Shown here: positions 3,291-36,444 of the stretch, one piece after another
Position numbering within the stretch: position 1 is the stretch's first letter
Layout of the letters: every line of letters starts with the position of its first letter
From: Botryllus schlosseri
Taxonomy: Eukaryota
Length of the DNA: 64,000 bases
Direction: 5' to 3'
Assembly (NCBI GenBank): GCA_051294905.1
Contig: CM119372.1
Location: 6,946,001 to 7,010,000, forward strand
Notes under the pieces: generated by a model
What the model was told of the DNA's origin: nothing
What the model saw: only the letters and a program-made list of their open reading frames with translations
Database searches by the model: none
Made by a program: the position numbers and the translations under genes

Positions 3291-4562
3291 GTCGTGGGCT
3301 CAGTGTCGTTGGTCTTGTTAAACGTAGCTGTCGAGTTGTACAATATACTTGTCGTGAGTATACTATTACGAAGGGAGAGAATGAAATTGCTATTATGAGT
3401 GCCAGAAGGTTGTTATATGTAGATTTGACAGTAACCCTATTATTCGCATATGACAAACACAATCATGACCATTAACTAACTTGCTCGGTCTCGATCAATG
3501 CAAAAGAGATGATTCGTTTTTTGAAACCGTAGCGAAGACCACATGTAAATCTATGCGATAGACTTCTATCTCCTGACATTCAGTCATGTCGTTTGCATTT
3601 TAATACGGACCCCACATGTATGACATGCACACACTAACGCCGTAAACAGAAGTCGATGATTTTGATTATTAAAAATATTTCTTGACTACATCGGAATGTC
3701 TATGTTGTGGAAAGTAAATACTATTATGGTGTTGTGTGTTTAATGAAAGCGATTGGTTACAAGTATGTTTTGGGAAAATAAAATTTATTTTTCTGTATGT
3801 GGCAGTTTGTGAGGAAATGAAAATAGATTCGTGGTTTTTATTGGATTGTGATTGCACTGTTTTAATGTATGCTTCAACATGGAGACTTGACGCTGAACAA
3901 CAACTCGATACACTAAACAATTTGTCACTGGTGTGCAAAGGGTTAGGAAAATTTTAATACAGCTCCATCTACTGGTTGTTTTGTTGTGAGGACAATCATG
4001 CGATGACTCGGCACTTTTCGGTAGCAAGTAGATTGATCTCTGTGAAAGATGTAGGGACCGTGACTAGAAAACATATGTACTCTGTTGTTGGAGTATCTGG
4101 TTTATTGTTATGACATTGACAGAACCCTCGGGAAGTGGGTATGCTTTTCTTTCACGAAAGTTTACACGACTCCGTTGTAATGAATTTGTGTTAACTAAAC
4201 TTGGATGGATACCGCAATTGTACTCGACTTACACATGATATTCGCATACTGCACGCATACAAACTTTTGTGTAAACAACTCTGATGTTTCTGTTCGTACT
4301 AGATCTGTGTTGAACTATTTGATTATTAAGATACATGAACAACCATTCAAACAATAAAGTTCTTGTGACATCGAAACAGTTTGAAAGCGCCACCAATCAT
4401 TGTACAGGTTCGTAGCATGGGAATATCGAATATTTTCGTGTGTCATGAATATCTTTCTTATACACTTAGTATGAAATGAGATAATAATTAGTGTCCTACA
4501 AAAGTAAAACATGTTGTGTTTGATTGCATACTTTTTATCGTTGTTCGTTGTGGTTTTGAAAG

Positions 4563-15226: not shown

Positions 15227-15964
15227 TCCTCACATACAAAAAAATTCGACGTGCGCGAGCTATGGGGTCTCTCACAAATGTTTTTTTGTTTTGGGGGGTG
15301 TATAGTAAATTTATATCGACATATACATTTTTCTTTGTAACCTTCAACACGAACAGCCTCGAATTTTTCATTGTTATGGAGATTGGCATTGGGACGCAAC
15401 AATGCTTTTTGGACCTTTTTCTCTTGAGTTAATCTCTCGTTTCGCCAGACAGCATTGTTGCGTCCCAATGCCAATCTCAATAACAATGAAAAATTCGAGG
15501 CTGATTGTGGGAGCTCCAGGGCCACGAGCGGAATAAAATTTATATTTTCGTAATCAGTGCAGAGTCAGCTTTCGATTGATACCCGTTTTACCAAATTTAA
15601 TGCTCGGCAAGCCGGTCAAAAATGACCGTCAAATTGCCTCTGTAGCCAAAAGGAAATTGTGACGTGATACAACTTCACTGAGCCGTGAGATTTGCTTGCG
15701 TCGACACCATATAGGACACTATGGTCCAACGGTCGGATCGAAACAGAACCGCACCTCGCAGATACATCGAGGAGTACTGATGTAGTTATAGGAGTAGTGT
15801 GTGTAAATATGTTGTGTTCTTCATTCACCTCTTGCCTGCCTATTGCTTCATACTTTTGTACCGCTAACTGCCTCAATTCGGATTGTTTATTGTCTTCATT
15901 CTGTGCTTGCGTTGTATATGTTTGTGCTGCTTATAAGCTTTTGTGCTTGTCCCGAGAAGGGAGA

Positions 15965-16099
15965 TGTAGTGGTAGCTCTATGGCGCCACTAGGGTGTGAC
16001 GACATCGCAGGGGCTTCGGTGCTGGGTCGTCACTGAATACATGGCTGCTTGAGAACTCACGTCTCGTATATTAGATAGACCGTCATTCACGTTACTACA
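15965..16099 (+). mobile_element. Duplicated 3' LTR (135 bp) with PPT of the Leu-primed gypsy element
   Basis: AGAAGGGAGA then TGTAGTGG...TTACTACA; inverted copy of 35478-35612. Confidence 0.9.
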
Positions 16100-16888
16100 C
16101 TGGTCTTCGTCCAGGGCTGTGGGCTGTGTATCGTGACATTGAGCCTTGGTGTTTTGACAGCTTCGCTGGCAGGTGCCTGAAAACCCGCGCTTTCTCGGCC
16201 CCAGTCAGCCAACGAGAGTTTGTATTTCGCTGCGTTTTTCTCATTATGTTGATTGGAAATACCTCCAAACACGGCGATCTGCTCACCACAAACTGAAATG
16301 ACAGGTTTACCTTTGAGTTGAGCAAACAAATATGTAGTGCTCCGAATATTCCCTAAATGCCTGCCTTGAGCCTCCACCTTTGTTCATCTTTTATGGGTGA
16401 CCGCTAGTCACGTGGACTGATTGACATGTTTTACGGATTATGGATTGACATGTAGGCCTACGACAAGTACGACATGGAAATAAAATGAAAGCACCAACCG
16501 GGTAATTTGCAATTTGACATAATGGCGACAAACAAGTTCTGAACAACCTGGAATCCGATACTTTTGACTTTAAATGTTGCAGCATTCTTTGCTATATTTG
16601 CACCATTTTGAATCCGTGCAATTAGACTTATATTTAGGCTTACCATATTTTGGAAATAAAATTTGAGACTTGCAAAACTGGTGAATTTTTCCCACTTTGT
16701 GATCGGTTGACTAAAAAAAAAGGGTCATCTTTTCGCTCAGAGCTAAAATCACCGTTTTTCACTCCGAAATACCCGCCGGAGCGTCACTTCTGTGCTATAT
16801 TACGGCATATCATTCGCAATTTGCTATAAATCTGACCTAAATCTTCAGAAAAGAGGACAAATCCTCTTAAAAGAGGACGTATGGTAAC

Positions 16889-19800
16889 CAGAGTTGGATC
16901 AATTGTAATTTGTAATTGTAATTGTAATTGAAGCATTTCTATTTTGTGTAATTGTAATTGTAATTTGATCAAAATTTTGCTCAATTACAATCTCAATTAC
17001 ATTTTCATGGAAACCTGACAATCACAAGATAAAATAATCAATTAATCAATCATTTTTTCGTCGCACCGGTGAATATCCGGTACGAACCAGGATGACGACG
17101 AGGGGCCATAAGGCCTTAGTAAACCAGTGTTGGGATCAAGTCACTACCTTCGAGTCACGAGTCAATTCGAGTCATTGCACATTTTGACTCGAGTCAAGTC
17201 AAGTCAGTCGATTTTCGAAGGTGACTCGAGTCAAGTCAAGTCAGTCGATTTTCGGGGGTGACTCGAGTCCAGTCGAGTCAAGTCAAGTCAAGTCACAATT
17301 CAAGTCAAATTGCCTTTTCGAGGTATGAGGCGTGATTACGTCATTGTATTTTGCTAGCTGCCTGAAATACAGATTGAGTGGTCATTGATTTTGAACCGAT
17401 GAACGAATATATAGTTAAACATACACGCAAGTAAGGCGCTGTATCGCTCACGTTTAAGTAGAACTAATAAACTAATTAAGTAATTGCACAGCCTCAGTTT
17501 ATAGTTACCAGCCAAAATAGAGAATAGAGAAACGAATTGATAAGATGCAATACATTACCCTGTTGCAAATTGATATGATACAATGTCAGCCTGCGCCAAT
17601 GGTTGAGGACTATATAAACTATTTGCGAATTCAATTTCAATAAAACAAGAGGTTTGGTTAAGTTAAGAACACAGAACAGAAATAGACATTTTGCTATTAA
17701 ATTACTTTACTATACTATAGTTTACGACAGGGGTCGGCAACCTTTTGCTAGTCACGGGTCAAATTTCGAGTGCGCAACATTTTGGCGGGCCGGAATTTTT
17801 CTTAATACTATATTTATCGCTCACGTCGGTATATTACCCTACAATGCTGCAATCTCAATCATAAAAATCACAAAAAGAGCAAAACACATGTATTTACACT
17901 TCAACAACGCAAGATAAATGTGACACTTGGCGCAGCCCGCTTTGTGAAAGGTTTTCAACTTCTGGTAACAAGTCAGATGAAGCAAGAATCAGACCATATT
18001 CTAAATGGGCGTTGGAATACGTGATCTTAGCTTGCTCTTCGTGAAATTCTTTGTTGAAAACAAAAGTCGATGCCATTTCTTTTGCATTGTTGGTCAAGCT
18101 GGGATGAAGACCCATTTCAAGAACGTACTCTTTGTCAAAGTCATTCAGCGATATGCTCTTTGTATGAAATTTGTCATTCAATTCAACTGCATCGCATTTC
18201 AAATGGGCCCATTTGAAATTTTCTGGCAATGGTTTTGGCGTCCACATAAAACGGAGTAGCCTACTGAGTAGTCAGAATTTATTTTGTACAGAACGAATGT
18301 CGGAAAAGCGGGTGGAAATTCAGTAATTAAATTTCGTATATCACAGTTACAAATGTATAGTGCTGGTATACTAGGCTTACTCTCCTCCAGTATAGGAAAG
18401 TGAGCAAAATTTTCTTTGCACTGTTGACATTCCCAGAGTCGCAGTTTTGTTTCGAATGCGTCTCAACATCTCATGTAGCCTATTAATTGTTGCTCCCTGA
18501 AGTTGCAAATTCAATTTGTTTAGATGTGACCTTAAATGTACTACGAAAGCTAGATTAGATACCAATTTTCGATGACAAGATTATGAGTCGGCTATGTTCG
18601 TATTTTCAAGGAAAGTTACTATTTCATTTCTCAGTTCATATACACTCGTGCAAGCATAGCTTCTCGACTTAATGCGCGAACATGGCAGATATGCAAGACA
18701 TCGCCACATTGACGCTCTGCTTCTAGTAATATCTGAGGTAGGCTAACTGTCGGTGATTCAGTTTGTGAGACAAAATCAGCTTTCACCATTGTATCCAAAA
18801 CACTAATCAGGTTTGTTGTCTTGGCGTAAAATGTCTTCTGGCGAATTAAACTACAAATGACTAACCTACGGATGCTAGTTATCTATAATGAAACAGGGAA
18901 AGTTTGAGATTTTGTCATTGCGTCTGAGCAGAGGAACGGCACCTTTATTGTCGCACCCTATCTGAGTGGTAAACCCTTAAAAAAGTATGGTATAGGCTAC
19001 CCTCGGTTGCGCGATACACCCGCTAGTTATGCACTGGTCTGGTCTACTCCACAGACATTCTCCATCTCCTACTTTTAGTACAAGATAGGCTACTAGTCGA
19101 CCGCCTTCGCCCCAGTTTTATGGCGTAACAATATACTAATACGACGAAGGATATACTTTATATCGCAGCAATGCCGCATTCTTTCCAAGCAGTGCTGCAC
19201 TGCAGATTGGAACTCATTACGAAACGGCGGCCGTATTCTCGTGGTAACTAGTTATTTCGTCGCGGGCCGGACGATTTCGCTTGGCGGGCCGGATCCGGCC
19301 CGCGGGCCGTAGGTTACCGACCCTTGGTTTACGACAACGTATACTGTCAACTTCGATCACTTCGTTTGCGATCAATATATTTGTGAGAGAACATTGGAGG
19401 CCCAGTAAAACGCACGATCACTAAATGATTGGTCGCTCTCACGCGGGTTATTACACAAGCGTTGCGCGAACAATCCGAACATATATGTATAAGATGCAGT
19501 AGTGATTTTTATCGCCACCGATTACTTGATGACTTGAAATTGACTCGTGAATTTTGCAAATAAACTCTTCTGAAATCTGTGCTGAACCATTTCCTACATT
19601 ACGGTCAAAGTTTTTTTTCAAATCTCTGACCAGTACCATGGCTTGTTGGAACAATAGCAAAAAAAAATTCAAGTTTCCAACCAAGGCTTCATCAAACTTG
19701 ATCACGCATTTGTAGAGATGTTATCCCAATCTTGGCCAAATATACTGGGGCAAGAAACTTTTCGCCCCCTAATGTTCATCAAATGCAACCCAACAGTTTC

Positions 19801-20400
19801 CGAGCAAGTGAAAATGTAAATGCGAACCATAGTATTGTAATTCTTAGTTATCAGGAGGTTCTTTCCTTTTGCATTTATTTTAATTGTACGCACCATATCG
19901 GTATCATCCTTATCGCTGACGCCTTACCAATTACATTTCATTATCCTGACTCGGCTCTGAGTAGCCTTATCGTTTGATTACATTTCATTGACTGGTCTGT
20001 AGCCTATTCGCTGTTATTCGCTCAAACCTTTGGTTCTTAACAGTCGCTTGAAACATTTTTCTGTGCTTGTAGTTTTCAGTACTCATGATTAGGAATAGTT
20101 CGAATACGTTCGAGTTTGTTTTTTTTAATTAAAGGGTATTCTACATATCAGGAATGAAACATGAATAGCTTGAGATTGTTGCTAATTACGTCGCTACGGT
20201 TGTCAAAGAACACATCTTTACTGAATCAATTACCTGTTTAAAAGTAATTGTAATTAATTACATGTTTAACAGTAATTGTAATTATAATTTGATATTTTTA
20301 GCATTTAGTAATTGTAATTGTAATGTAATTGAAACATACAAGGAAGTAATTGTATTTGTAATTGTAATTGAATTAAAATATTGTAATTGATCCAACTCTG
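16889..20400. mobile_element. Non-autonomous hAT element with (AATTGT)n subterminal arrays, carrying nested inserts
   Basis: TIR CAGAGTTGGATCAATT ... AATTGATCCAACTCTG; exact 8-bp TSD ATGGTAAC; mirrored at 24870-28641. Confidence 0.88.
17728..19326 (-). mobile_element. Charlie/Buster-type hAT with decayed transposase (copy 1)
   Basis: TIR CAGGGGTCGGCAACC / GGTTACCGACCCTTG, TSD GTTTACGA; remnants LAFVVHLRSHLNKLNLQLQG and ...LSQSGLRQVSH typical of Buster/SPIN/GTF2IRD2-like transposases. Confidence 0.88.
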
Positions 20401-20644
20401 ATGGTAACCCTACTATAGTATATATAGGCTACGTAATCACTGTAAACCAGGAGTGTCAAAAATACGGTCCGCCAGACTATCTCATCCGGCCTGCGATGCA
20501 ATTCTGAGCAAATTGAAAAATTATGTAGCCTATGATCCAGCACATTTCTAACAAATGTTGAAATTTTTAGTAGAAAGTAATTCGATTAGATAATCTCTCA
20601 AGACAGCAATTGTCGAGCGTGTTCAACTGTTCATAGGCCACGTT

Positions 20645-23600
20645 AGTAGTAGGATGAGCTGGCTTTGGCGCAGCCCAATCAAATGTCGCCACGTCGCCTT
20701 AATTGCCACGCCTACAGGACGCCCATTGCCACGTCACCTACCGCACCTATAGCACACCCATTGCCACATCATCCCCCATTGCCGCACCTATATGACGCCC
20801 ATTGCCACATCGTGTGTATTTATGAGCAAATTTCATTGTTTTGTGAATTTCAATACCGATTTTCCATGTGTATTTAGCAATATGTATTGAATAACTTGAA
20901 ATGTATCATCACTAATTAATTAATATGAAAAGCGATTTTGAGCGCTGCGACTTGAAAATATTAATCCCTACGCTTCTGATGAATGATTTTCTGTGATAAG
21001 GACCTTGGTAACATTCAGATTCTGCAACGATTGTTTGGATATACATTTTAGCAATACCCCACTAAACTATAAGCGGTTATATTACTCTATTGGTCGGAGA
21101 TAACTCATCCGTCAATATTTTTAAACTTGATTTTATGTGTACAAGTTTCGGTTTCTGCGGTCTCCACATTTACGACATATTTTGATTAGACGCAGGTTAG
21201 CGATTCTCAAGTTCGGAGCTATGGAAACAAATCAGTCGCATGTGCACGTTCCGAAGTCGCAACAGCTTACTGAGCTTAGTAGCATATACGCGAATCCCAA
21301 GGCGAAAATAATCGAACGAACTATAGCCGCAGGCGCGCGAAGGGCTGTAATTATACAAACACTTTATCCGCATATACGCGAACCCCAGCGTTATAACGAC
21401 AGGGACTAATTATCGCGTTCTGAAGCCGTAAATTTAGTCAACTTCAATGAGATAGCCATGATTTAAAGATGGTAATATCTCTTAATGACTTAAATACTCT
21501 GAATTTTAAATTATCCACACCTATGAGTTAATACTTCTTTACTTAACAACTCCAAAGGTTAGCACAGTTTGTGGTATTTCGATTACCTGCTAATAAAATG
21601 TTGAAATGTAATGTACTTTTTTTCAGGGGTCTCGATGAATTGTACCAGTTTCATCTATTTCCTACAATGCATTTCGCTGTCCTGAATGACTTATCATCAC
21701 CGTGAAAAAATAGTAAAAATATACCGAAAATTTGGGAAGTCCTACTATGCGATATTTGAGTTTTTCAATTTACATTTCGAAATTAGCCCAGTTGGATATC
21801 AACGAAAACCACGTAAAATTTCACTCCAAACGTTATGGCTTTAACTCGAGCAAATACGTATTCCGAATTTTATGAGTGAAATAACCTTCCTTATGTCAAA
21901 TCTACATAGGGCAGAATAAATCGAAAAAACAATAAATGCGGAGGCCCAGGCTTCGAGATATAGCTCGGCGTCACACCGCGGTCCAATAACGAGAGTGGAA
22001 TAATATAGAAATCATACCGAACCATTGTAAAAGTGACGTTTCTTAGTTTATGCATATAAAATTTCACATTGTAAAAGTTAATATTCAAGGTCCATTTTTG
22101 TTTAATACTGAAACTGTCTTGAATTTGAAACAGGCCTATATCATAAACACTTGAGTAGTTGGTGCATGTAGGCAAAAAAACCACTTGAGTACTTTGAAAA
22201 AATACATGTACTTCTCTGCTCAACATCTCTGAACGATAGAAGTGGAGAAATAGTCTACAAACATAACCAGTTACTCACTTACTTACTTACTTTGAAATCT
22301 GTACTTTTACTTGTATTCGAGCGGAATTGCGCGATGTTGAGTACCATCTGACAGCGTTTATCACACTGCTGGAAAATTAAGGTTCAGTACTCGAGTATCA
22401 AATTAGATTTACTTGAGTGAACGTGAGGAGTTATAATAAGTGATTCTACTAAAGTTTCTATGTGGCGCGGTGCTGGTAAAACCACCAGCTTGATTATTTC
22501 GGAATATAGAATAGAAGACCAGCTTCTATCATCAAGCACCATAAGACCCATCATTCATACATACATACTTACATTATCTGCTTGGGGCTGTCTATCCTTA
22601 TTAAGGTACTTGGTAAGAACGTGGTAAAGCCATTGAACAGCAATTTTACACTCGCGGTTTTATTGTTATATATTCAAATTATACGTACATTTCGCGCGAT
22701 CAACTACGCATGAGTTTATGTGAATTTCATCGATAGTGTCCGAGTTCTATGTGACATAAGTACAATTTCAGCATCGGTATTTGCAATAAAGCCTAAAAAT
22801 TAGAGTTGCACCTTTTCGCGATTTATGCAGCTATTCGCGCAGATTTGCCGCATTTGCTATATCTGAAGTAGAATTTCAGCGTCGTTATTCACTATAAGCC
22901 GAGAAATGCACCTTCGCGCAATTTATATAGACAGACGCATTAACTTTGCTGCATCTGAAGTAGAATTTCAGCGTCGTTATTTGTTATAAGCCGAGAAATG
23001 TAAATTCCCGCAATTTTTACAGGCTCACACACTTTGCTGCGTCTGAAGTAGAATTTCAGCGTCGTTGTTTGCTATAAGCCGGGAAATTAGAGTCGCTGCT
23101 TCGCGCAATTTTTACAGGCAGTCTCACACACTTTGCTGCATCTGAGCTTCATACTAATACATGCATAATTTTTGCATGACGAGAACACGGGTAATTAAAT
23201 CATCAATAAACGCCGGAGGCGAGTCATTTAAACCTTGTTGCTAGATAATACCGCTTTCGGCTACAACAAAGTTGCCCTGCAACAAAAAAAAAAATAGAAG
23301 CCCTAATGATCATGCAGAGAGTTCAAAAATGCTCCACAATTCTTGACATATAATATACTGAGCATATAATAAGCTGACAAAACCTATACTTGAGTACTCC
23401 GAAATGTACAAGTACCTCACCTTCACACGACGTTTTTGTAAAATGAATACTAATTTTAATGAAAAAGTAAAAATTATGTACTCAAGTAGGTTGTTGTCTA
23501 CACGCACCAACTACTCAAGTGTTTATGACACAGGAATGATTCATTAAGTATAGCGCAAGCAGGTAAAACCTATACTTGAGTACTCCAAAATGTACAAGTA

Positions 23601-24625
23601 CTTCGCTATGTACTCCACGTAAAAAGTCACTAGATTTTAGACTACTTTATCGATTTTTGAAGTTGCGCAAATACCATAAACTTTGCTTGCTTTCAGAGCT
23701 GGCAACTAAATGCAACACAGACTTTACGCAAAAGTCTCTATTCTGAAAATTTTATCAAGGTAATAGTATAAAAACTTATACTTGAGCACTACGAAATGTA
23801 CAAGTACTTTACCTTTACACGACGTTTTTTGTAAAATGAATACTAATTTTATTGAAAAAATAAAAAAATAAAAAAAGAGCGAAAAATTACGTTTTATCCC
23901 GGAACGCAACAAGAAAAATCGTATGAATTTGTAAACTACTTATTCATGACATAATAATAATTCTACTTGTATACTATTTCATATTTTGTAACAATTTTAG
24001 TAGTACTTAAATAAAATTCGGAATATAAACTAATCGAAAAATTCGGTAACCAATTTCGCATAGGCTATGCATACAAATGAGGAAAGTTACATCAACGCGT
24101 GTAAACTAATTGTATTATGTAGCTTGTAATTCATGCAAGTTTCGAAACTTCTACACTGAGTCTTTTAAAGTAGATAGAATCGAAAAAACTAATCGAAAAT
24201 ATTTACGAAGTTTGGATGCGACATATTCGGGCTTTTAAAAATTATTCATACTCATGATTCGCAATACTTTTAACTAACTTATGTTTTCTACATAAGATAA
24301 GCGTGAAGTGTACAAATTTCGATGTTGCTCAAAATCGCTTTTCATATTAATTAATTAGTGATGATACATTTCAAGTTATTCAATACATATTGCTAAATAC
24401 ACATGGAAAATCGGTATTGAAATTCACAAAACAATGAAATTTGCTCATAAATACACACGATGTGGCAATGGGCGTCATATAGGTGCGGCAATGGGGGATG
24501 ATGTGGCAATGGGTGTGCTATAGGTGCGGTAGGTGACGTGGCAATGGGCGTCCTGTAGGCGTGGCAATTAAGGCGACGTGGCGACATTTGATTGGGCTGC
24601 GCCAAAGCCAGCTCATCCTACTACT
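20645..24625. mobile_element. Non-coding Polinton/Maverick-like element (3981 bp) with ~299-bp TIRs
   Basis: Begins AGTAGTAGG, ends CCTACTACT; TIRs 20645-20943 and 24327-24625 contain repeated CCCATTGCCAC units; no recognisable ORF inside; no direct TSD because the flanks are inverted copies. Confidence 0.6.
22755..23146. repeat. ~90-bp tandem repeat, about 4 copies
   Basis: CTGAAGTAGAATTTCAGCGTCGTT..TATAAGCCG recurs at ~22863, ~22955 and ~23043, with a diverged first copy at ~22757. Confidence 0.8.
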
Positions 24626-25009
24626 AACGTGGCCTATGAACAGTTGAACACGCTCGACAATTGCTGTCTTGAGAGATTATCTAATCGAATTACTTTCTAC
24701 TAAAAATTTCAACATTTGTTAGAAATGTGCTGGATCATAGGCTACATAATTTTTCAATTTGCTCAGAATTGCATCGCAGGCCGGATGAGATAGTCTGGCG
24801 GACCGTATGTTTGACACTCCTGGTTTACAGTGATTACGTAGCCTATATATACTATAGTAGGGTTACCATCAGAGTTGGATCAATTACAATATTTTAATTC
24901 AATTACAATTACAAATACAATTACTTCCTTGTATGTTTCAATTACATTACAATTACAATTACTAAATGCTAAAAATATCAAATTATAATTACAATTACTG
25001 TTAAACATG

Positions 25010-25264
25010 TGTAGCGTACCGCTCCATGAATAACCTATAATTAACCTCGCTGATTACTGATTATGTTACTGCTGCGTCTCTTGTGTTGTACTCTTTTATG
25101 GAGTCGCTTTTAGTCACCGTCCGAGCGAATCGTCTTTTAGTATCCGTCGGATGAGCATCGTCATGTTTTAGTTGTTTTATTAAAAGAGCAATGCTGACTT
25201 GTCTACTTTGACTTATCGAGCCGCGGACCAAGAAGAACGCGCGCCCACGACAGAGCACGCTATA
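25010..25264 (+). mobile_element. Solo LTR (255 bp), CsRN1-like gypsy
   Basis: TGTAGCG...CGCTATA flanked by 4-bp TSD CATG; the empty site is visible in the left arm at ~20261; differs from 31057-31311 at 2 positions. Confidence 0.92.
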
Positions 25265-26202
25265 CATGTAATTAATTACAATTACTTTTAAACAGGTAAT
25301 TGATTCAGTAAAGATGTGTTATTTGACAACCGTAGCGACGTAATTAGCAACAATCTCAAGCTATTCATGTTGCATTCCTGATATGTAGAATACCCTTTAA
25401 TTAAAAAAAACAAACTCGAACGTATTCGAACTATTCCTAATCATGAGTACTGAAAACTACAAGCACAGAAAAATGTTTCAAGCGACTGTTAAGAACCAAA
25501 GGTTTGAGCGAATAACAGCGAATAGGCTACAGACCAGTCAATGAAATGTAATCAAACGATAAGGCTACTCAGAGCCGAGTCAGGATAATGAAATGTAATT
25601 GGTAAGGCGTCAGCGATAAGGATGATACCGATATGGTGCGTACAATTAAAATAAATGCAAAAGGAAAGAACCTCCTGATAACTAAGAATTACAATACTAT
25701 GGTTCGCATTTACATTTTCACTTGCTCGGAAACTGTTGGGTTGCATTTGATGAACATTAGGGGGCGAAAAGTTTCTGGCCCCAGTAAATTTGGCCAAGAT
25801 TGGGATAACATCTCTACAAATGCGTGATCAAGTTTGATGAAGCCTTGGTTGGAAACTTGAATTTTTTTTTGCTATTGTTCCAACAAGCCATGGTACTGGT
25901 CAGAGATTTGAAAAAAAACTTTGACCGTAATGTAGGAAATGGTTCAGCACAGATTTCAGAAGAGTTTATTTGCAAAATTCACGAGTCAATTTCAAGTCAT
26001 CAAGTAATCGGTGGCGATAAAAATCACTACTGCATCTTATACATATATGTTCGGATTGTTCGCGCAACGCTTGTGTAATAACCCGCGTGAGAGCGACCAA
26101 TCATTTAGTGATCGTGCGTTTTACTGGGCCTCCAATGTTCTCTCACAAATATATTGATCGCAAACGAAGTGATCGAAGTTGACAGCATACGTTGTCGTAA
26201 AC

Positions 26203-27802
26203 CAAGGGTCGGTAACCTACGGCCCGCGGGCCGGATCCGGCCCGCCAAGCGAAATCGTCCGGCCCGCGACGAAATAACTAGTTACCACGAGAATACGGCC
26301 CGCCGTTTCGTAATGAGTTCCAATCTGCAGTGCAGCACTGCTTGGAAAGAATGCGGCATTGCTGCGATATAAAGTATATCCTTCGTCGTATTAGTATATT
26401 GTTACGCCATAAAACTGGGGCGAAGGCGGTCGACTAGTAGCCTATCTCGTACTAAAAGTAGGAGATGGAGAATGTCTGTGGAGTAGACCAGACCAGTGCA
26501 TAACTAGCGGGTGTATCGCGCAACCGAGGGTAGCCTATACCATACTTTTTTAAGGGTTTACCACTCAGATAGGGTGCGACAATAAAGGTGCCGTTCCTCT
26601 GCTCCGACGCAATGACAAAATCTCAAACTTTCCCTGTTTCATTATAGATAACTAGCATCCGTAGGTTAGTCATTTGTAGTTTAATTCGCCAGAAGACATT
26701 TTACGCCAAGACAACAAACCTGATTAGTGTTTTGGATACAATGGTGAAAGCTGATTTTGTCTCACAAACTGAATCACCGACAGTTAGCCTACCTCAGATA
26801 TTACTAGAAGCAGAGCGTCAATGTGGCGATGTCTTGCATATCTGCCATGTTCGCGCATTAAGTCGAGAAGCTATGCTTGCACGAGTGTATATGAACTGAG
26901 AAATGAAATAGTAACTTTCCTTGAAAATACGAACATAGCCGACTCATAATCTTGTCATCGAAAATTGGTATCTAATCTAGCTTTCGTAGTACATTTAAGG
27001 TCACATCTAAACAAATTGAATTTGCAACTTCAGGGAGCAACAATTAATAGGCTACATGAGATGTTGAGACGCATTCGAAACAAAACTGCGACTCTGGGAA
27101 TGTCAACAGTGCAAAGAAAATTTTGCTCACTTTCCTATACTGGAGGAGAGTAAGCCTAGTATACCAGCACTATACATTTGTAACTGTGATATACGAAATT
27201 TAATTACTGAATTTCCACCCGCTTTTCCGACATTCGTTCTGTACAAAATAAATTCTGACTACTCAGTAGGCTACTCCGTTTTATGTGGACGCCAAAACCA
27301 TTGCCAGAAAATTTCAAATGGGCCCATTTGAAATGCGATGCAGTTGAATTGAATGACAAATTTCATACAAAGAGCATATCGCTGAATGACTTTGACAAAG
27401 AGTACGTTCTTGAAATGGGTCTTCATCCCAGCTTGACCAACAATGCAAAAGAAATGGCATCGACTTTTGTTTTCAACAAAGAATTTCACGAAGAGCAAGC
27501 TAAGATCACGTATTCCAACGCCCATTTAGAATATGGTCTGATTCTTGCTTCATCTGACTTGTTACCAGAAGTTGAAAACCTTTCACAAAGCGGGCTGCGC
27601 CAAGTGTCACATTTATCTTGCGTTGTTGAAGTGTAAATACATGTGTTTTGCTCTTTTTGTGATTTTTATGATTGAGATTGCAGCATTGTAGGGTAATATA
27701 CCGACGTGAGCGATAAATATAGTATTAAGAAAAATTCCGGCCCGCCAAAATGTTGCGCACTCGAAATTTGACCCGTGACTAGCAAAAGGTTGCCGACCCC
27801 TG
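26203..27802 (+). mobile_element. Charlie/Buster-type hAT with decayed transposase (copy 2)
   Basis: Same element as 17728-19326, inverted; TSD TCGTAAAC. Confidence 0.88.
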
Positions 27803-29270
27803 TCGTAAACTATAGTATAGTAAAGTAATTTAATAGCAAAATGTCTATTTCTGTTCTGTGTTCTTAACTTAACCAAACCTCTTGTTTTATTGAAATTGAA
27901 TTCGCAAATAGTTTATATAGTCCTCAACCATTGGCGCAGGCTGACATTGTATCATATCAATTTGCAACAGGGTAATGTATTGCATCTTATCAATTCGTTT
28001 CTCTATTCTCTATTTTGGCTGGTAACTATAAACTGAGGCTGTGCAATTACTTAATTAGTTTATTAGTTCTACTTAAACGTGAGCGATACAGCGCCTTACT
28101 TGCGTGTATGTTTAACTATATATTCGTTCATCGGTTCAAAATCAATGACCACTCAATCTGTATTTCAGGCAGCTAGCAAAATACAATGACGTAATCACGC
28201 CTCATACCTCGAAAAGGCAATTTGACTTGAATTGTGACTTGACTTGACTTGACTCGACTGGACTCGAGTCACCCCCGAAAATCGACTGACTTGACTTGAC
28301 TCGAGTCACCTTCGAAAATCGACTGACTTGACTTGACTCGAGTCAAAATGTGCAATGACTCGAATTGACTCGTGACTCGAAGGTAGTGACTTGATCCCAA
28401 CACTGGTTTACTAAGGCCTTATGGCCCCTCGTCGTCATCCTGGTTCGTACCGGATATTCACCGGTGCGACGAAAAAATGATTGATTAATTGATTATTTTA
28501 TCTTGTGATTGTCAGGTTTCCATGAAAATGTAATTGAGATTGTAATTGAGCAAAATTTTGATCAAATTACAATTACAATTACACAAAATAGAAATGCTTC
28601 AATTACAATTACAATTACAAATTACAATTGATCCAACTCTGGTTACCATACGTCCTCTTTTAAGAGGATTTGTCCTCTTTTCTGAAGATTTAGGTCAGAT
28701 TTATAGCAAATTGCGAATGATATGCCGTAATATAGCACAGAAGTGACGCTCCGGCGGGTATTTCGGAGTGAAAAACGGTGATTTTAGCTCTGAGCGAAAA
28801 GATGACCCTTTTTTTTAGTCAACCGATCACAAAGTGGGAAAAATTCACCAGTTTTGCAAGTCTCAAATTTTATTTCCAAAATATGGTAAGCCTAAATATA
28901 AGTCTAATTGCACGGATTCAAAATGGTGCAAATATAGCAAAGAATGCTGCAACATTTAAAGTCAAAAGTATCGGATTCCAGGTTGTTCAGAACTTGTTTG
29001 TCGCCATTATGTCAAATTGCAAATTACCCGGTTGGTGCTTTCATTTTATTTCCATGTCGTACTTGTCGTAGGCCTACATGTCAATCCATAATCCGTAAAA
29101 CATGTCAATCAGTCCACGTGACTAGCGGTCACCCATAAAAGATGAACAAAGGTGGAGGCTCAAGGCAGGCATTTAGGGAATATTCGGAGCACTACATATT
29201 TGTTTGCTCAACTCAAAGGTAAACCTGTCATTTCAGTTTGTGGTGAGCAGATCGCCGTGTTTGGAGCTGA

Positions 29271-29299
29271 TGCGTGTTCATATCACGTCGGGGTCACCA
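29271..29299 (+). other. DNA copy of the 3' 29 nt of tRNA-Trp including CCA (extended PBS, not a tRNA gene)
   Basis: T-GCGTG-TTCATAT-CACGT-CGGGGTC-A-CCA = T arm, acceptor strand and CCA; the minus strand reads as the Trp PBS TGGTGACCCCGACGTGAT, 3 nt after the LTR end. Confidence 0.85.
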
Positions 29300-29302
29300 A
29301 AA

Positions 29303-29497
29303 TATAGCGTGCTCTGTCGTGGGCGCGCGTTCTTCTTGGTCCGCGGCTCGATAAGTCAAAGTAGACAAGTCAGCATTGCTCTTTTAATAAAACAACTAAA
29401 ACATGACGATGCTCATCCGACGGATACTAGAGATCGACTGACTCGGACGGTGACTAAAAGGCGACTGCACCTCCGACGGTGACTAAAAGCCGATTCG
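29303..29497 (-). mobile_element. Inverted partial LTR (U5-R side) of the Trp-primed element
   Basis: Exact reverse complement of the LTR 3' part to ~29429, then a scrambled three-unit version of the LTR internal repeat. Confidence 0.88.
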
Positions 29498-30721
29498 TTG
29501 CATCTCGCGGAAGTACATGTCGTAGAGTTGAACGATCCTATCATTTTCGACAAGTCGTTACCTGGTAAAGAACGTCCCTACGTTCCTGCAGCGCTTCGAG
29601 AGACTGTAATGCACAGTGTGCATGATATTTCGCACCCCGGTATACGCGCGACCACTAAATTAATAGCTGAACGTTATGTATGGCCTGGCATGAAACGACA
29701 TGTGAACGATTTCGTCCGTCATTGTCAGCAGTGTCAACGATCGAAGATTCATAGGCATACTCGAACTGCAATTACCAATCTTCCCGTCCCTTCCGAACGC
29801 TTTCATACGGTTAACGTGGACATTTTATCACTCCCTAATAGTTGCGGCTACTCGTATATTTTGATGTGTGTTGATCGCTATACTCGCTGGCCTGTGTGTG
29901 TTCCAATGATGGACATTCGTGTCCAAACTGTTATTGATGCGTTTAGTTTTGGCTGGGTGTCGAATTTCGGCTCACCCCGTAAAGTCATAACCGACCGAGG
30001 AAGTCAGTTTACCTCGCTTGAATGGACTCAGTATATGCAATTCTTGGGTATTTTCCACATCAAAACCTTGGCGTATAAGCCGGAGCAAAATTCTCTTGTC
30101 GAACTCTATAACAGAACTTTGAAAGCCTCCCTCCGCGCATTAGAAAGTCCTCATAATTGGTATCATCATTTAGGCTTAATTGTTTTAGGGCTGCGATGTT
30201 CTGTCAAGGAAGATCTCGGTTATTCACCAGCAGAGCTTGTGTATGGCACTTCCCTTCGATTACCCGGTCAATTAGTCGATCCCTCTCCCAGTGGCAATAA
30301 CGCTAATGATTTCAACTACGTCGGTGAATTAAAACGCTTTTTCTCAGCCTTGGGTGAGATGCCGACTAAGTTTCATTCGAATCAAAAATCTTATGTCCCA
30401 AACGATTTGAATAATTGCACGCACGTTTTCTTGCGGATAGATGGTCATCGTAGATCACTCGATCCGGTTTATTCTGGTCCGCATCAAGTTTTAAAACGCA
30501 CTCGTGAATGTTTCACAATTCTAACGAATAAGGGTCCGTATGACGCCTCAACCGACAGGCTTATACCTGGCAGACTTCCCATCGAGCGTCTCGACGAATT
30601 GACGCCACCGCAAGCTGACACTTCGCGAGCAAACTCTGTGTCGACCAGTGGCCGTATTATTCGTACTCCACATCACTTGAATGATTTTGTGTTGTCACCA
30701 GTATTTAATATGGATATTTAG
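29498..30721 (+). CDS. Gypsy (CsRN1-like) integrase, 5'-truncated pol fragment with open frame
   Basis: HDISHPG...CQQC zinc finger, VDIL / ITDRGSQF / NSLVELYN DDE core, YSGPHQV GPY/F motif; no ATG start, no RT or gag. Confidence 0.92.
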   Translation: MHLAEVHVVELNDPIIFDKSLPGKERPYVPAALRETVMHSVHDISHPGIRATTKLIAERYVWPGMKRHVNDFVRHCQQCQRSKIHRHTRTAITNLPVPSERFHTVNVDILSLPNSCGYSYILMCVDRYTRWPVCVPMMDIRVQTVIDAFSFGWVSNFGSPRKVITDRGSQFTSLEWTQYMQFLGIFHIKTLAYKPEQNSLVELYNRTLKASLRALESPHNWYHHLGLIVLGLRCSVKEDLGYSPAELVYGTSLRLPGQLVDPSPSGNNANDFNYVGELKRFFSALGEMPTKFHSNQKSYVPNDLNNCTHVFLRIDGHRRSLDPVYSGPHQVLKRTRECFTILTNKGPYDASTDRLIPGRLPIERLDELTPPQADTSRANSVSTSGRIIRTPHHLNDFVLSPVFNMDI

Positions 30722-31056
30722 TGTGTTACTCATTCACTTTTCCGCCATCACTTGTATTTTTTCGCAACAGGCTCCTTCATCTCCTGTATGTTCTATAAAT
30801 CGTGTCTTGAGCCTTTCTCATTGTAAAGTGCATCATTATCGCTAAACGAACAATTGTGTCGTTTATAGCTTTACCACCACGCCCACTCCACTTTCATTAG
30901 TCATTATAACATTTAGAATTGAACTCGTATTCGAATCGTAATCTGTAATCATTGCCGTGTCATGCTGGTAGCGTCGTTCATTCGTATATAGTTGAATCGT
31001 TGACTGATGTAGTGTCCATATCATATCCTAAAGCTTTTACCAACCAGGGGGGCCCT

Positions 31057-31311
31057 TGTAGCGTACCGCTCCATGAATGACCTATAATTACCCTCGCTGA
31101 TTACTGATTATGTTACTGCTGCGTCTCTTGTGTTGTACTCTTTTATGGAGTCGCTTTTAGTCACCGTCCGAGCGAATCGTCTTTTAGTATCCGTCGGATG
31201 AGCATCGTCATGTTTTAGTTGTTTTATTAAAAGAGCAATGCTGACTTGTCTACTTTGACTTATCGAGCCGCGGACCAAGAAGAACGCGCGCCCACGACAG
31301 AGCACGCTATA
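31057..31311 (+). mobile_element. 3' LTR of the Trp-primed element, preceded by PPT
   Basis: AGGGGGGCCCT then TGTAGCG...CGCTATA followed by CATG. Confidence 0.92.
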
Positions 31312-32249
31312 CATGTAATTAATTACAATTACTTTTAAACAGGTAATTGATTCAGTAAAGATGTGTTCTTTGACAACCGTAGCGACGTAATTAGCAACAA
31401 TCTCAAGCTATTCATGTTGCATTCCTGATATGTAGAATACCCTTTAATTAAAAAAAACAAACTCGAACGTATTCGAACTATTCCTAATCATGAGTACTGA
31501 AAACTACAAGCACAGAAAAATGTTTCAAGCGACTGTTAAGAACCAAAGGTTTGAGCGAATAACAGCGAATAGGCTACAGACCAGTCAATGAAATGTAATC
31601 AAACGATAAGGCTACTCAGAGCCGAGTCAGGATAATGAAATGTAATTGGTAAGGCGTCAGCGATAAGGATGATACCGATATGGTGCGTACAATTAAAATA
31701 AATGCAAAAGGAAAGAACCTCCTGATAACTAAGAATTACAATACTATGGTTCGCATTTACATTTTCACTTGCTCGGAAACTGTTGGGTTGCATTTGATGA
31801 ACATTAGGGGGCGAAAAGTTTCTGGCCCCAGTAAATTTGGCCAAGATTGGGATAACATCTCTACAAATGCGTGATCAAGTTTGATGAAGCCTTGGTTGGA
31901 AACTTGAATTTTTTTTTGCTATTGTTCCAACAAGCCATGGTACTGGTCAGAGATTTGAAAAAAAACTTTGACCGTAATGTAGGAAATGGTTCAGCACAGA
32001 TTTCAGAAGAGTTTATTTGCAAAATTCACGAGTCAATTTCAAGTCATCAAGTAATCGGTGGCGATAAAAATCACTACTGCATCTTATACATATATGTTCG
32101 GATTGTTCGCGCAACGCTTGTGTAATAACCCGCGTGAGAGCGACCAATCATTTAGTGATCGTGCGTTTTACTGGGCCTCCAATGTTCTCTCACAAATATA
32201 TTGATCGCAAACGAAGTGATCGAAGTTGACAGCATACGTTGTCGTAAAC

Positions 32250-33849
32250 CAAGGGTCGGTAACCTACGGCCCGCGGGCTGGATCCGGCCCGCCAAGCGAA
32301 ATCGTCCGGCCCGCGACGAAATAACTAGTTACCACGAGAATACGGCCCGCCGTTTCGTAATGAGTTCCAATCTGCAGTGCAGCACTGCTTGGAAAGAATG
32401 CGGCATTGCTGCGATATAAAGTATATCCTTCGTCGTATTAGTATATTGTTACGCCATAAAACTGGGGCGAAGGCGGTCGACTAGTAGCCTATCTCGTACT
32501 AAAAGTAGGAGATGGAGAATGTCTGTGGAGTAGACCAGACCAGTGCATAACTAGCGGGTGTATCGCGCAACCGAGGGTAGCCTATACCATACTTTTTTAA
32601 GGGTTTACCACTCAGATAGGGTGCGACAATAAAGGTGCCGTTCCTCTGCTCAGACGCAATGACAAAATCTCAAACTTTCCCTGTTTCATTATAGATAACT
32701 AGCATCCGTAGGTTAGTCATTTGTAGTTTAATTCGCCAGAAGACATTTTACGCCAAGACAACAAACCTGATTAGTGTTTTGGATACAATGGTGAAAGCTG
32801 ATTTTGTCTCACAAACTGAATCACCGACAGTTAGCCTACCTCAGATATTACTAGAAGCAGAGCGTCAATGTGGCGATGTCTTGCATATCTGCCATGTTCG
32901 CGCATTAAGTCGAGAAGCTATGCTTGCACGAGTGTATATGAACTGAGAAATGAAATAGTAACTTTCCTTGAAAATACGAACATAGCCGACTCATAATCTT
33001 GTCATCGAAAATTGGTATCTAATCTAGCTTTCGTAGTACATTTAAGGTCACATCTAAACAAATTGAATTTGCAACTTCAGGGAGCAACAATTAATAGGCT
33101 ACATGAGATGTTGAGACGCATTCGAAACAAAACTGCGACTCTGGGAATGTCAACAGTGCAAAGAAAATTTTGCTCACTTTCCTATACTGGAGGAGAGTAA
33201 GCCTAGTATACCAGCACTATACATTTGTAACTGTGATATACGAAATTTAATTACTGAATTTCCACCCGCTTTTCCGACATTCGTTCTGTACAAAATAAAT
33301 TCTGACTACTCAGTAGGCTACTCCGTTTTATGTGGACGCCAAAACCATTGCCAGAAAATTTCAAATGGGCCCATTTGAAATGCGATGCAGTTGAATTGAA
33401 TGACAAATTTCATACAAAGAGCATATCGCTGAATGACTTTGACAAAGAGTACGTTCTTGAAATGGGTCTTCATCCCAGCTTGACCAACAATGCAAAAGAA
33501 ATGGCATCGACTTTTGTTTTCAACAAAGAATTTCACGAAGAGCAAGCTAAGATCACGTATTCCAACGCCCATTTAGAATATGGTCTGATTCTTGCTTCAT
33601 CTGACTTGTTACCAGAAGTTGAAAACCTTTCACAAAGCGGGCTGCGCCAAGTGTCACATTTATCTTGCGTTGTTGAAGTGTAAATACATGTGTTTTGCTC
33701 TTTTTGTGATTTTTATGATTGAGATTGCAGCATTGTAGGGTAATATACCGACGTGAGCGATAAATATAGTATTAAGAAAAATTCCGGCCCGCCAAAATGT
33801 TGCGCACTCGAAATTTGACCCGTGACTAGCAAAAGGTTGCCGACCCCTG
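32250..33849 (+). mobile_element. Charlie/Buster-type hAT with decayed transposase (copy 3)
   Basis: Duplicate of 26203-27802; TSD TCGTAAAC. Confidence 0.88.
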
Positions 33850-35850
33850 TCGTAAACTATAGTATAGTAAAGTAATTTAATAGCAAAATGTCTATTTCTG
33901 TTCTGTGTTCTTAACTTAACCAAACCTCTTGTTTTATTGAAATTGAATTCGCAAATAGTTTATATAGTCCTCAACCATTGGCGCAGGCTGACATTGTATC
34001 ATATCAATTTGCAACAGGGTAATGTATTGCATCTTATCAATTCGTTTCTCTATTCTCTATTTTGGCTGGTAACTATAAACTGAGGCTGTGCAATTACTTA
34101 ATTAGTTTATTAGTTCTACTTAAACGTGAGCGATACAGCGCCTTACTTGCGTGTATGTTTAACTATATATTCGTTCATCGGTTCAAAATCAATGACCACT
34201 CAATCTGTATTTCAGGCAGCTAGCAAAATACAATGACGTAATCACGCCTCATACCTCGAAAAGGCAATTTGACTTGAATTGTGACTTGACTTGACTTGAC
34301 TCGACTGGACTCGAGTCACCCCCGAAAATCGACTGACTTGACTTGACTCGAGTCACCTTCGAAAATCGACTGACTTGACTTGACTCGAGTCAAAATGTGC
34401 AATGACTCGAATTGACTCGTGACTCGAAGGTAGTGACTTGATCCCAACACTGGTTTACTAAGGCCTTATGGCCCCTCGTCGTCATCCTGGTTCGTACCGG
34501 ATATTCACCGGTGCGACGAAAAAATGATTGATTAATTGATTATTTTATCTTGTGATTGTCAGGTTTCCATGAAAATGTAATTGAGATTGTAATTGAGCAA
34601 AATTTTGATCAAATTACAATTACAATTACACAAAATAGAAATGCTTCAATTACAATTACAATTACAAATTACAATTGATCCAACTCTGGTTACCATACGT
34701 CCTCTTTTAAGAGGATTTGTCCTCTTTTCTGAAGATTTAGGTCAGATTTATAGCAAATTGCGAATGATATGCCGTAATATAGCACAGAAGTGACGCTCCG
34801 GCGGGTATTTCGGAGTGAAAAACGGTGATTTTAGCTCTGAGCGAAAAGATGACCCTTTTTTTTTAGTCAACCGATCACAAAGTGGGAAAAATTCACCAGT
34901 TTTGCAAGTCTCAAATTTTATTTCCAAAATATGGTAAGCCTAAATATAAGTCTAATTGCACGGATTCAAAATGGTGCAAATATAGCAAAGAATGCTGCAA
35001 CATTTAAAGTCAAAAGTATCGGATTCCAGGTTGTTCAGAACTTGTTTGTCGCCATTATGTCAAATTGCAAATTACCCGGTTGGTGCTTTCATTTTATTTC
35101 CATGTCGTACTTGTCGTAGGCCTACATGTCAATCCATAATCCGTAAAACATGTCAATCAGTCCACGTGACTAGCGGTCACCCATGAAAGATGAACAAAGG
35201 TGGAGGCTCAAGGCAGGCATTTAGGGAATATTCGGAGCACTACATATTTGTTTGCTCAACTCAAAGGTAAACCTGTCATTTCAGTTTGTGGTGAGCAGAT
35301 CGCCGTGTTTGGAGGTATTTCCAATCAACATAATGAGAAAAACGCAGCGAAATACAAACTCTCGTTGGCTGACTGGGGCCGAGAAAGCGCGGGTTTCCAG
35401 GCACCTGCCAGCGAAGCTGTCAAAACACCAAGGCTCAATGTCACGATACACAGCCCACAGCCCTGGACGAAGACCAGTGTAGTAACGTGAATGACGGTCT
35501 ATCTAATATACGAGACGTGAGTTCTCAAGCAGCCATGTATTCAGTGACGACCCAGCACCGAAGCCCCTGCGATGTCGTCACACCCTAGTGGCGCCATAGA
35601 GCTACCACTACATCTCCCTTCTCGGGACAAGCACAAAAGCTTATAAGCAGCACAAACATATACAACGCAAGCACAGAATGAAGACAATAAACAATCCGAA
35701 TTGAGGCAGTTAGCGGTACAAAGGTATGAAGCAATAGGCAGGCAAGAGGTGAATGAAGAACACAACATATTTACACACACTACTCCTATAACTACATCAG
35801 TACTCCTCGATGTATCTGCGAGGTGCGGTTCTGTTTCGATCCGACCGTTG

Positions 35851-36444
35851 GACCATAGTGTCCTATATGGTGTCGACGCAAGCGAATCTCACGGCTCAGT
35901 GAAGTTGTATCACGTCACAATTTCCTTTTGGCTACAGAGGCAATTTGACGGTCATTTTTGACCGGCTTGCCGAGCATTAAATTTGGTAAAACGGGTATCA
36001 ATCGAAAGCTGACTCTGCACTGATTACGAAAATATAAATTTTATTCCGCTCGTGGCCCTGGAGCTCCCACAATCAGCCTCGAATTTTTCATTGTTATTGA
36101 GATTGGCATTGGGACGCAACAATGCTGTCTGGCGAAACGAGAGGTTAACTCAAGAGAAAAAGGTCCAAAAAGCATTGTTGCGTCCCAATGCCAATCTCCA
36201 TAACAATGAAAAATTCGAGGCTGATTGTGGGGGTTCCAGGGCCGCAAGCGGAATAAAATTTATATTTTCGTTATCAGTGCAGAGTCAGCTTTCGATTGAT
36301 ACCCGTTTTACAAAATTTAATGCTCGGCAAGCCGGTCAAAAATGACCGTCAAATTGCCTGTAGCCAAATGGAAATTGTGACGTGATACAATTTCACTGAG
36401 CCGTGAGATTTGCTTGTGTCGACACCATATAGGACACTATGGTC
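35851..36444. mobile_element. Palindromic (foldback) MITE, 594 bp
   Basis: GACCATAGTGTCCTATATGGTGTCGAC ... GTCGACACCATATAGGACACTATGGTC; arms run almost to the centre; no clear TSD. Partial copies at 15354-15726 and 61312-61445. Confidence 0.85.

Follow-up and report, generated by a model that had tools for sequence, protein, structure and literature searches.

A stretch of 64,000 nucleotides (nt) from the genome of Botryllus schlosseri (C2:6946001-7010000, hereafter the window) carries, next to an inverted piece of a long terminal repeat (LTR), 29 nt that reproduce the 3′ part of a mature transfer RNA for tryptophan (tRNA-Trp), including its CCA end. The LTR belongs to a group of Ty3/gypsy-type elements that we call family 1 and that is primed by this tRNA. 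The copy differs from the tRNA-Trp gene at a single base, position 58 of the T loop, which is the site of 1-methyladenosine (m1A58) in retroviral primer tRNAs. We consider it probable that these 29 nt were copied into DNA from the tRNA-Trp primer by a reverse transcriptase that read past m1A58 and placed a wrong base there, and that the aberrant cDNA became fixed in a rearranged copy of the element. On this reading an RNA modification has left its trace in the genome, which is rare but has a precedent. Four other loci, belonging to a second LTR family, hold five further events of the same kind. The genome searched comprises 495 Mb in 219 contigs.

The tRNA-Trp copy in the window

As a reference we used a tRNA-Trp(CCA) gene predicted by ARAGORN (L011:1455-1526), and the tRNA positions given here follow our own numbering on this 72-nt gene. 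Compared with the gene plus CCA, the stretch at 29271-29299 corresponds to positions 48-76 and agrees at 28 of its 29 bases; it is the last 26 nt of the gene followed by CCA, and the sole mismatch is the T at 29281, in place of A58. The tRNA-Trp genes do not encode CCA, and because the stretch has it, the stretch must come from a mature tRNA. ARAGORN predicted no tRNA gene within the window, and tRNA-Trp(CCA) genes are numerous elsewhere, with 25 predicted in the 21 loci scanned. In every T arm of a tRNA-Trp gene or pseudogene that was read (27/27), position 58 is A. A genome-wide search with the 26-nt pattern, two mismatches being allowed, returned 30 hits, with T58 in the window and in none of the other 29, and with G58 in three, none of which is a tRNA gene. 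A preliminary description of this DNA, made from its letters, had reported a 29-nt tRNA-Trp match with T58 beside an inverted LTR segment; this is confirmed, and a native gene with T58, which would have given an ordinary source for the base, did not appear among the arms and hits read.

The extension of the match beyond the primer-binding site is a property of this copy and not of its family. The exact 18-nt complement of the primer-binding site was found at 100 sites in the genome, and at 7 of these, distributed over five loci (the window and the four family-2 loci), the match to the tRNA runs on past 18 nt. For at least 10 of the 11 extra bases to match by chance the probability is 8.1e-6 at any one site, which makes about 8e-4 for all 100 together. 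The seven family-1 relatives read all carry the 18 nt, one of them with a single mismatch, and there the match to the tRNA ends; genome-wide, the window is the only family-1 site with an extension. The three letters AAA, which the preliminary description had placed between the tRNA copy and the LTR, do lie there and can be specified further as the normal family-1 spacer between U5 and the primer-binding site, present in 6 of the 7 relatives, the seventh having TAA.

The four letters CTGA that precede the tRNA copy could be aligned to tRNA positions 28-31, as if the copying had jumped over the anticodon arm; by our estimate a 4-mer turns up by chance in what remains of the tRNA in about 16% of cases, and this candidate was dropped as not significant. 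Two other hits, C1:12843368 and C13:20823129, were rejected as chance matches, their few matching bases sitting in partial primer-site repeats of the leader. Such repeats are a feature of family 1: in the “leader” of several elements (L003, L006, L007, L044) the primer site is partly repeated in tandem directly downstream of the primer-binding site, in copies of about 10-11 nt spaced by about 27 nt, and their number varies between elements. As for the genes themselves, a large cluster of tRNA-Trp genes, several of them decayed, occupies 17.82-18.19 Mb of contig C15 (G000; L019-L038), and contains a tandem array with a 169-bp period in which TTCAAAT and TTCGAAT T loops are interspersed.

Position 58 in a second element family

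LTR family 2 consists of elements 4.1 kb long (4118 bp) with LTRs of 151 bp. At four loci that are not tRNA genes (C6:2536511, C9:3289012, C10:16781859 and C11:7122870) the 3′ end of tRNA-Trp with its CCA is joined to family-2 U5 (Table 1), the C10 locus holding two different copies. Ordinary family-2 5′ ends match tRNA-Trp for 10-14 nt only (14 of 14 read), whereas the aberrant copies have the full 18 nt and 11 to ~21 more. Since the match is longer than that of ordinary copies, the primer-site region of the aberrant ones was copied from the tRNA itself. The LTRs at the four loci are 8-14% different from each other or belong to separate subfamilies, and because the LTRs have diverged and the joints differ, the events are independent. 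The copy at C6 was integrated in the normal manner: its two LTRs are identical, and the target was duplicated over 4 bp (ATAT).

When the six events are taken together, the window included, position 58 is altered in five of six and positions 48-57 in 0 of 60 (Fisher p = 6.7e-7), a comparison in which 5 of the 60 control positions sit in junction microhomology and only positions 48-52 are free of selection by the search, the patterns having tolerated at most two mismatches in positions 53-76. The change is specific to position 58. T or G in most events, one base skipped and now and then the correct A make up a mixture that would be expected as the signature of read-through at m1A. The claim of the preliminary description that a tRNA modification is recorded in genomic DNA is in this way supported, and it is strengthened by five independent events that vary at position 58 only.

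The places where the tRNA copies end may hold information as well. The end lies at 48 in the window and between 38 and 53 in family 2; it can be placed at 48 in the window and in the first C10 event, and at 38 in C6 and in the second C10 event. Both position 37 and the variable loop carry modifications in vertebrate tRNA-Trp, and the ends could flag modified bases at these places. The competing explanation is that they mark no further modified bases, being instead the 5′ ends of 3′ tRNA fragments that served as primers, or the points at which microhomology allowed a jump, and we regard this as a real possibility, somewhat short of an even one. Microhomology of 5-6 nt is present at two of the four family-2 joints read (C6 and C10), which leaves the ends of these two copies undefined, and the spread from 38 to 53 is wide; on the other side, two events can end at 48 and two at 38, the latter adjoining position 37, which is a known stop for another primer tRNA according to a review (PMC13191261).

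Why one family should supply five of the events may lie in its primer-binding site, which in family 2 (L082, L049-L076) matches tRNA-Trp over 13-14 nt only. A normal 18-nt primer copy would in consequence overhang such a site by 4-5 nt in every cycle, and this may explain the greater number of read-through accidents in this family. At the C10 locus (L085, C10:16778000-16786000) the family-2 5′ region, at about 3855-4500, is rearranged as a 232-bp tandem unit, with two full units and a partial third running into a complete LTR. Each unit is composed of the tRNA copy, of U5 (41 nt) and leader in inverted orientation, and of U5, primer site and leader in sense orientation, and the array looks like the product of repeated back-and-forth template switching.

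Table 1. Features of the locus (window coordinates) and family-2 copies of tRNA-Trp (contig and position)
Feature	Position	Strand	Remarks
Target-site duplication CATG, left copy	25006..25009		One CATG only at the empty site of the inverted left arm
LTR_A, full 255-bp family-1 LTR	25010..25264	+	Followed by CATG and flank; no primer-binding site
Flank copy 1 (CATG and ~4 kb)	25265..29266	+	Tandem duplicate of 31312-35314; ends at 29266
Filler CTGA, 4 nt, between flank and tRNA copy	29267..29270	+	Differs from the flank continuation and from tRNA positions 44-47
tRNA-Trp positions 48-58, sense, past the normal primer-binding site	29271..29281	+	T at 29281 for gene A58
tRNA-Trp positions 59-76 including CCA, 18 nt	29282..29299	+	Complement of the family-1 primer-binding site
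Family-1 U5/primer-site spacer, 3 nt	29300..29302	-	TTT in element sense
Inverted LTR part	29303..29497	-	LTR 3′ end back to the first ~30-bp tandem unit
Microhomology ATTCG, 5 nt	29493..29497		Common to inverted LTR part and integrase side
Family-1 element, 3′ part	29498..31056	+	RNase H/integrase boundary, integrase, to polypurine tract
LTR_B, the 3′ LTR	31057..31311	+	Polypurine tract before, CATG (31312-31315) after
Flank copy 2	31312..35314	+	Runs unbroken into 35315 and beyond
Family-2 copy	C6:2536511		Position 58 = G; joined to internal position ~372-377 via 6-nt microhomology TCTGAT
Family-2 copy	C9:3289012		Position 58 = G; joined to internal position 2618
Family-2 copy, first at C10	C10:16781859		Position 58 = G; joined to antisense internal sequence via 5 nt, TGCGT
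Family-2 copy, second at C10, and tandem twin	C10:16782087		1-nt deletion at 58; inside the 232-bp unit of inverted leader pieces
Family-2 copy	C11:7122870		Position 58 = A; joined to internal sequence near position 2772

Structure of the locus and how it may have arisen

On the plus strand the window reads, in order, flank, filler, tRNA copy, spacer, inverted LTR part and integrase part (Table 1). Family 1 is assigned to the Ty3/gypsy type by its LTRs, primer-binding site and polypurine tract and by the order reverse transcriptase, RNase H, integrase; the complete relative L079 has RVT_1 and RNase H ahead of Integrase_H2C2 and rve. In the window, the plus-strand frame from 29498 matches the Pfam domains Integrase_H2C2 (1.4e-20) and rve (2.4e-12), and the open reading frame at 29483-30721 is open over 412 amino acids. 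This integrase-side part is 93% identical to L079, of which it matches positions 6397 down to 4701. The inverted LTR part is the reverse complement of the 3′ ~170-195 nt of the LTR, about two thirds of its 255 bp; it starts at the first of the ~30-bp tandem units, and the U3 side of the LTR, its first ~87 nt, is absent. These tandem units are variable in family-1 LTRs (29420-29497, 25090-25140 and L002-L008), numbering from one to at least five per aligned copy. An attempt to place the transcription start by promoter motifs gave a TATA-like motif at LTR ~25-34 and, in relatives, an initiator-like TCAGT at the first repeat unit; the two disagree, and the attempt was dropped.

Where the inverted LTR part meets the integrase part, the joint falls at the RNase H/integrase boundary of L079, position 6397, and the closest relatives read ...ATTCG immediately ahead of the same integrase-side sequence, the very letters that the inverted LTR part has at its end. 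A 91-nt probe laid over the joint found 44 matches in the genome, and only the window spans the joint. At the other end, flank copy 1 breaks off at 29266, where flank copy 2, the left arm of a palindrome described below and many diverged genomic copies are contiguous. Here a non-LTR end is joined, by way of the filler and with no target duplication, inside otherwise contiguous sequence. What the preliminary description had taken to be host flank up to 29266 has to be corrected on this point, for the flank is itself a copy of a dispersed repeat and one of two tandem copies. These two, 25265-29266 and 31312-35314, show 5 differences in 4003 aligned columns (~0.12%); with the left arm as the third, the flank copies are 99.7-99.9% identical, with 3, 2 and 6 private differences, the 6 being those of the left arm in 4 kb. 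The resident insertion is bounded by CATG before LTR_A (25006-25009) and after LTR_B (31312-31315), and two differences, neither of them beyond the first 35 nt, separate LTR_A from LTR_B.

The whole region forms a near-perfect palindrome, with the left arm, 15348-20943, inverted relative to 24327-25009 together with 25265-29266 / 31312-36229, and with a spacer at 20944-24326. The left arm keeps the empty site, with its single CATG at 20261-20264. The arms are a copy of a dispersed repeat that has 42 matches elsewhere, at 68-92% identity.

In retroviruses m1A58 is the main stop of plus-strand strong-stop synthesis, with minor stops at 55, 54 and 37, and every retroviral primer tRNA, tRNA-Trp among them, is stated to carry it (PMC13191261). 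When the A58 methyltransferase is lost, HIV-1 synthesis runs on and yields a product that no longer fits the other strand (PMC8599865), and a reverse transcriptase that passes m1A often inserts a wrong base (PMC4787781). With this in mind, the locus can be explained by the following series of steps. A tRNA-Trp-primed complementary DNA (cDNA) of R and U5, with the primer still attached, would have been copied into a second strand. The reverse transcriptase, which would usually halt at m1A58 after the last 18 nt of the primer, would here have copied 11 further bases, as far as position 48, and would have put deoxyadenosine (dA) opposite base 58, giving T in the tRNA sense. A tRNA copy, a spacer and an R-U5-like LTR part that lacks U3 would be the make-up of minus-strand strong-stop DNA together with its primer, and this is the identity that we propose for the piece. 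The far end of R-U5 would then have been joined through the 5-nt microhomology (3-5 matching bases) to an opposite-sense strand running from integrase to the 3′ LTR, most simply by a template switch within a particle, in which two genomes are packaged. The linear DNA so formed would have had only one valid end for integrase. Such a dead-end product could have entered the chromosome at the site of a resident LTR insertion: its tRNA end would have been joined to the broken flank with 4 filler bases, and the LTR end would have paired with the resident LTR by homology and been extended along the flank, duplicating the LTR and 4 kb.

An alternative starting point is a full resident element that broke between RNase H and integrase, and the fit is just as good; a solo LTR with later capture and a broken full element are inseparable, because the private differences of the flanks and the differences between LTR_A and LTR_B fit both. 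The route by strong-stop DNA and template switching, which the preliminary description had already proposed, is favoured because the inverted LTR part is devoid of U3 and the joint lies in a 5-nt microhomology. Of that earlier interpretation, the trace of a modification stands, and the route fits and is plausible, short of proof.

Besides the two limits on the position-58 comparison given above, several points weigh against our explanation. One of the six events, C11, retains A58. The methylation of A58 in this animal is itself put forward by analogy, being presumed from the pattern and from what is stated for retroviral primer tRNAs. In its repeat units the inverted LTR part departs from LTR_A and from LTR_B at several places, which means that at least two source copies are needed. 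Its putative nature as R-U5 and nothing else depends on the missing first ~87 nt of the LTR, and its end falls in a tandem-repeat unit as well as in the microhomology. Host end joining would yield a sequence identical to the one seen, so the part of the element's own enzyme in making the joints is presumptive, as is the repair route by which the cDNA would have been fixed in the chromosome. The remaining points concern the junction at 29266/29267. It was checked in assembled contigs of the public runs X1, X4, X7 and X11, such contigs showing the presence of a variant and not its absence, for they drop rare ones. Among the contig pieces listed, none bridges 29266/29267, those of X1, X4 and X7 stop exactly at 29266, and one piece of X1 continues for 42 letters unlike the window.

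The strongest competitor for the origin of the piece accepts the same read-through and changes the route: the source would be plus-strand strong-stop DNA, or the end of a finished cDNA, and the loss of U3 and the odd joints would be the work of end joining or deletion by the host. For each of the five family-2 events the best reading is a plus-strand transfer of read-through strong-stop DNA that went wrong; a microhomology of 5 nt and a filler of 4 nt are also typical of host end joining; and in yeast, pieces of Ty1 cDNA that contain bases found only in cDNA have been captured at chromosome breaks (PMC11372161). Plus-strand strong-stop DNA, however, carries U3, which is absent here, and an extra deletion that happens to end at the first repeat unit would be required. 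We hold this route to be rather unlikely, and prefer minus-strand strong-stop DNA as the source.

The contig results bring in a different doubt, namely that the flank junction and the 6-kb tandem arrangement are an assembly error, for example two alleles joined, with only the piece of tRNA and LTR being real. The lack of a bridging piece among those listed agrees with this, and so do the 99.7-99.9% identity of the flank copies and the situation of the region in a palindrome of a repeat. Yet the copies are not identical, having 3, 2 and 6 private differences, and a short path of low depth that leads into an LTR of very high copy number tends to be dropped when contigs are built. Misjoining, moreover, cannot produce the stretch from tRNA to LTR. 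We consider an assembly error quite unlikely, and even then the tRNA copy would stand.

It might also be argued that the primer was copied faithfully, either because that tRNA molecule was unmethylated or because the correct base was inserted, and that the T at 29281 arose later as a point mutation. Only a single base is concerned, C11 shows that A58 can be kept, and a divergence of ~0.12% between the local duplicates implies that some mutation has happened since. At 0.1-1% divergence, however, a later mutation would hit exactly 29281 in about 1 in 100 to 1 in 1000 cases, and over the six events 58 is altered in 5/6 against 0/60 at 48-57; this explanation is improbable. Least probable is that the family inherited a long primer-binding site with the 29-nt match, or that the match is a product of chance, for although mouse ETn/MusD elements do have lengthened primer sites in which a mismatch at the m1A position is fixed (10.1101/2025.05.12.650695), none of the seven relatives has the extension, the window is the sole family-1 site with one, and the chance value is ~8e-4.

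Known systems and meaning

The principle that a modified primer base can leave its mark in DNA is already in print, in the work on ETn/MusD and on HIV-1; the value here lies in natural one-off events, with varied outcomes at position 58, and in the method that they suggest. In the mouse endogenous retroviruses ETn/MusD a match of 22 nt to tRNA-Lys3 has a fixed C at the m1A58 position, ascribed to misincorporation (10.1101/2025.05.12.650695). The likeness to our events lies in a match that goes past 18 nt, with one mismatch, at 58, credited to misincorporation at m1A, and the C, given in element sense, is G in tRNA sense, the same base as in three of the family-2 events. The ETn/MusD extension, in contrast, is 4 nt long, occurs in all copies and is inherited, whereas ours are one-offs of 11 to ~21 nt, with outcomes at 58 that vary (T, G, deletion, A) and joints that differ; the window copy is, in addition, inverted and a dead end. 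HIV-1 read-through products (PMC8599865, PMC13191261) resemble our events in that the primer is copied past 58, with later stops that include 37, and in that the product misfits. Those products, however, came from in vitro reactions or from cells with a mutant methyltransferase, and they are reported as non-integrating, while the copies reported here are fixed in the germline and the one at C6 was normally integrated.

For the fixation step, the capture of Ty1 cDNA in yeast (PMC11372161) would be the nearest model, since there too intermediates are joined into breaks with none of the signatures of integrase, many of them with bases found only in cDNA. Ty1 capture is an experimental system in yeast, and the window adds to it a duplication of 4 kb that suggests homology repair of one end. 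The signature of m1A in RNA sequencing (PMC4787781) consists likewise of partial arrest and of any of three wrong bases at m1A58; it was obtained with commercial enzymes in the laboratory, whereas here the enzyme would be that of the element itself, and it is chromosomal DNA that is read.

Sequences of this sort may have been seen long ago in vertebrate retroviruses grown in cell culture. Colicelli and Goff, in 1986, reportedly described tRNA sequence past the primer-binding site beside U5 in aberrant retroviral circle junctions or vector DNA, and Pulsinelli and Temin, in 1991, are said to have found tRNA sequence beside U5 in aberrant vertebrate-retrovirus DNA from cell culture; we know of no spectrum at position 58 from those products. 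In our literature search, in which older subscription journals were thinly covered, no report was found of one-off fossils of tRNA read-through with a position-58 spectrum in a genome.

A wider proposal, to which we give slightly less than even credence, is that the window and the family-2 events are a natural, germline-fixed read-out of how gypsy-type reverse transcriptases of this animal work on a fully modified primer. It would show that A58 of tRNA-Trp is methylated in this animal, and that its bypass occurs in vivo and can still give rise to integrated copies. The identity of the wrong base may then depend on the enzyme, as family 1 would have inserted dA once, and family 2 deoxycytidine three times with one skip. 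Read-through products are not always dead ends, because the C6 copy was normally integrated. In more general terms, sloppy or failed steps of reverse transcription leave legible traces in an animal genome, and these traces would hold information on m1A58, an RNA modification that DNA normally cannot record. Six events in one genome would amount to a small in vivo spectrum of how reverse transcriptases of such elements behave at m1A58. As part of the wider proposal, the ends of the copies may mark further modified bases. Should the ends indeed mark modifications, whole-genome scans for tRNA ends with CCA standing beside U5 could map tRNA modifications in species that have no tRNA chemistry to draw on. 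The same logic could serve in whole genomes of many species to probe, indirectly and at little cost, how tRNAs are modified and which of them are used as primers.

Two further features of the window stand apart from the LTR elements. At 49579-50450 lies a telomere-like block of AACCCTAATATCCCC-like units, which occur on both strands, and at 56848-57053 there is an interstitial telomere-like array in which TTAGGG and TTAGG units are mixed.

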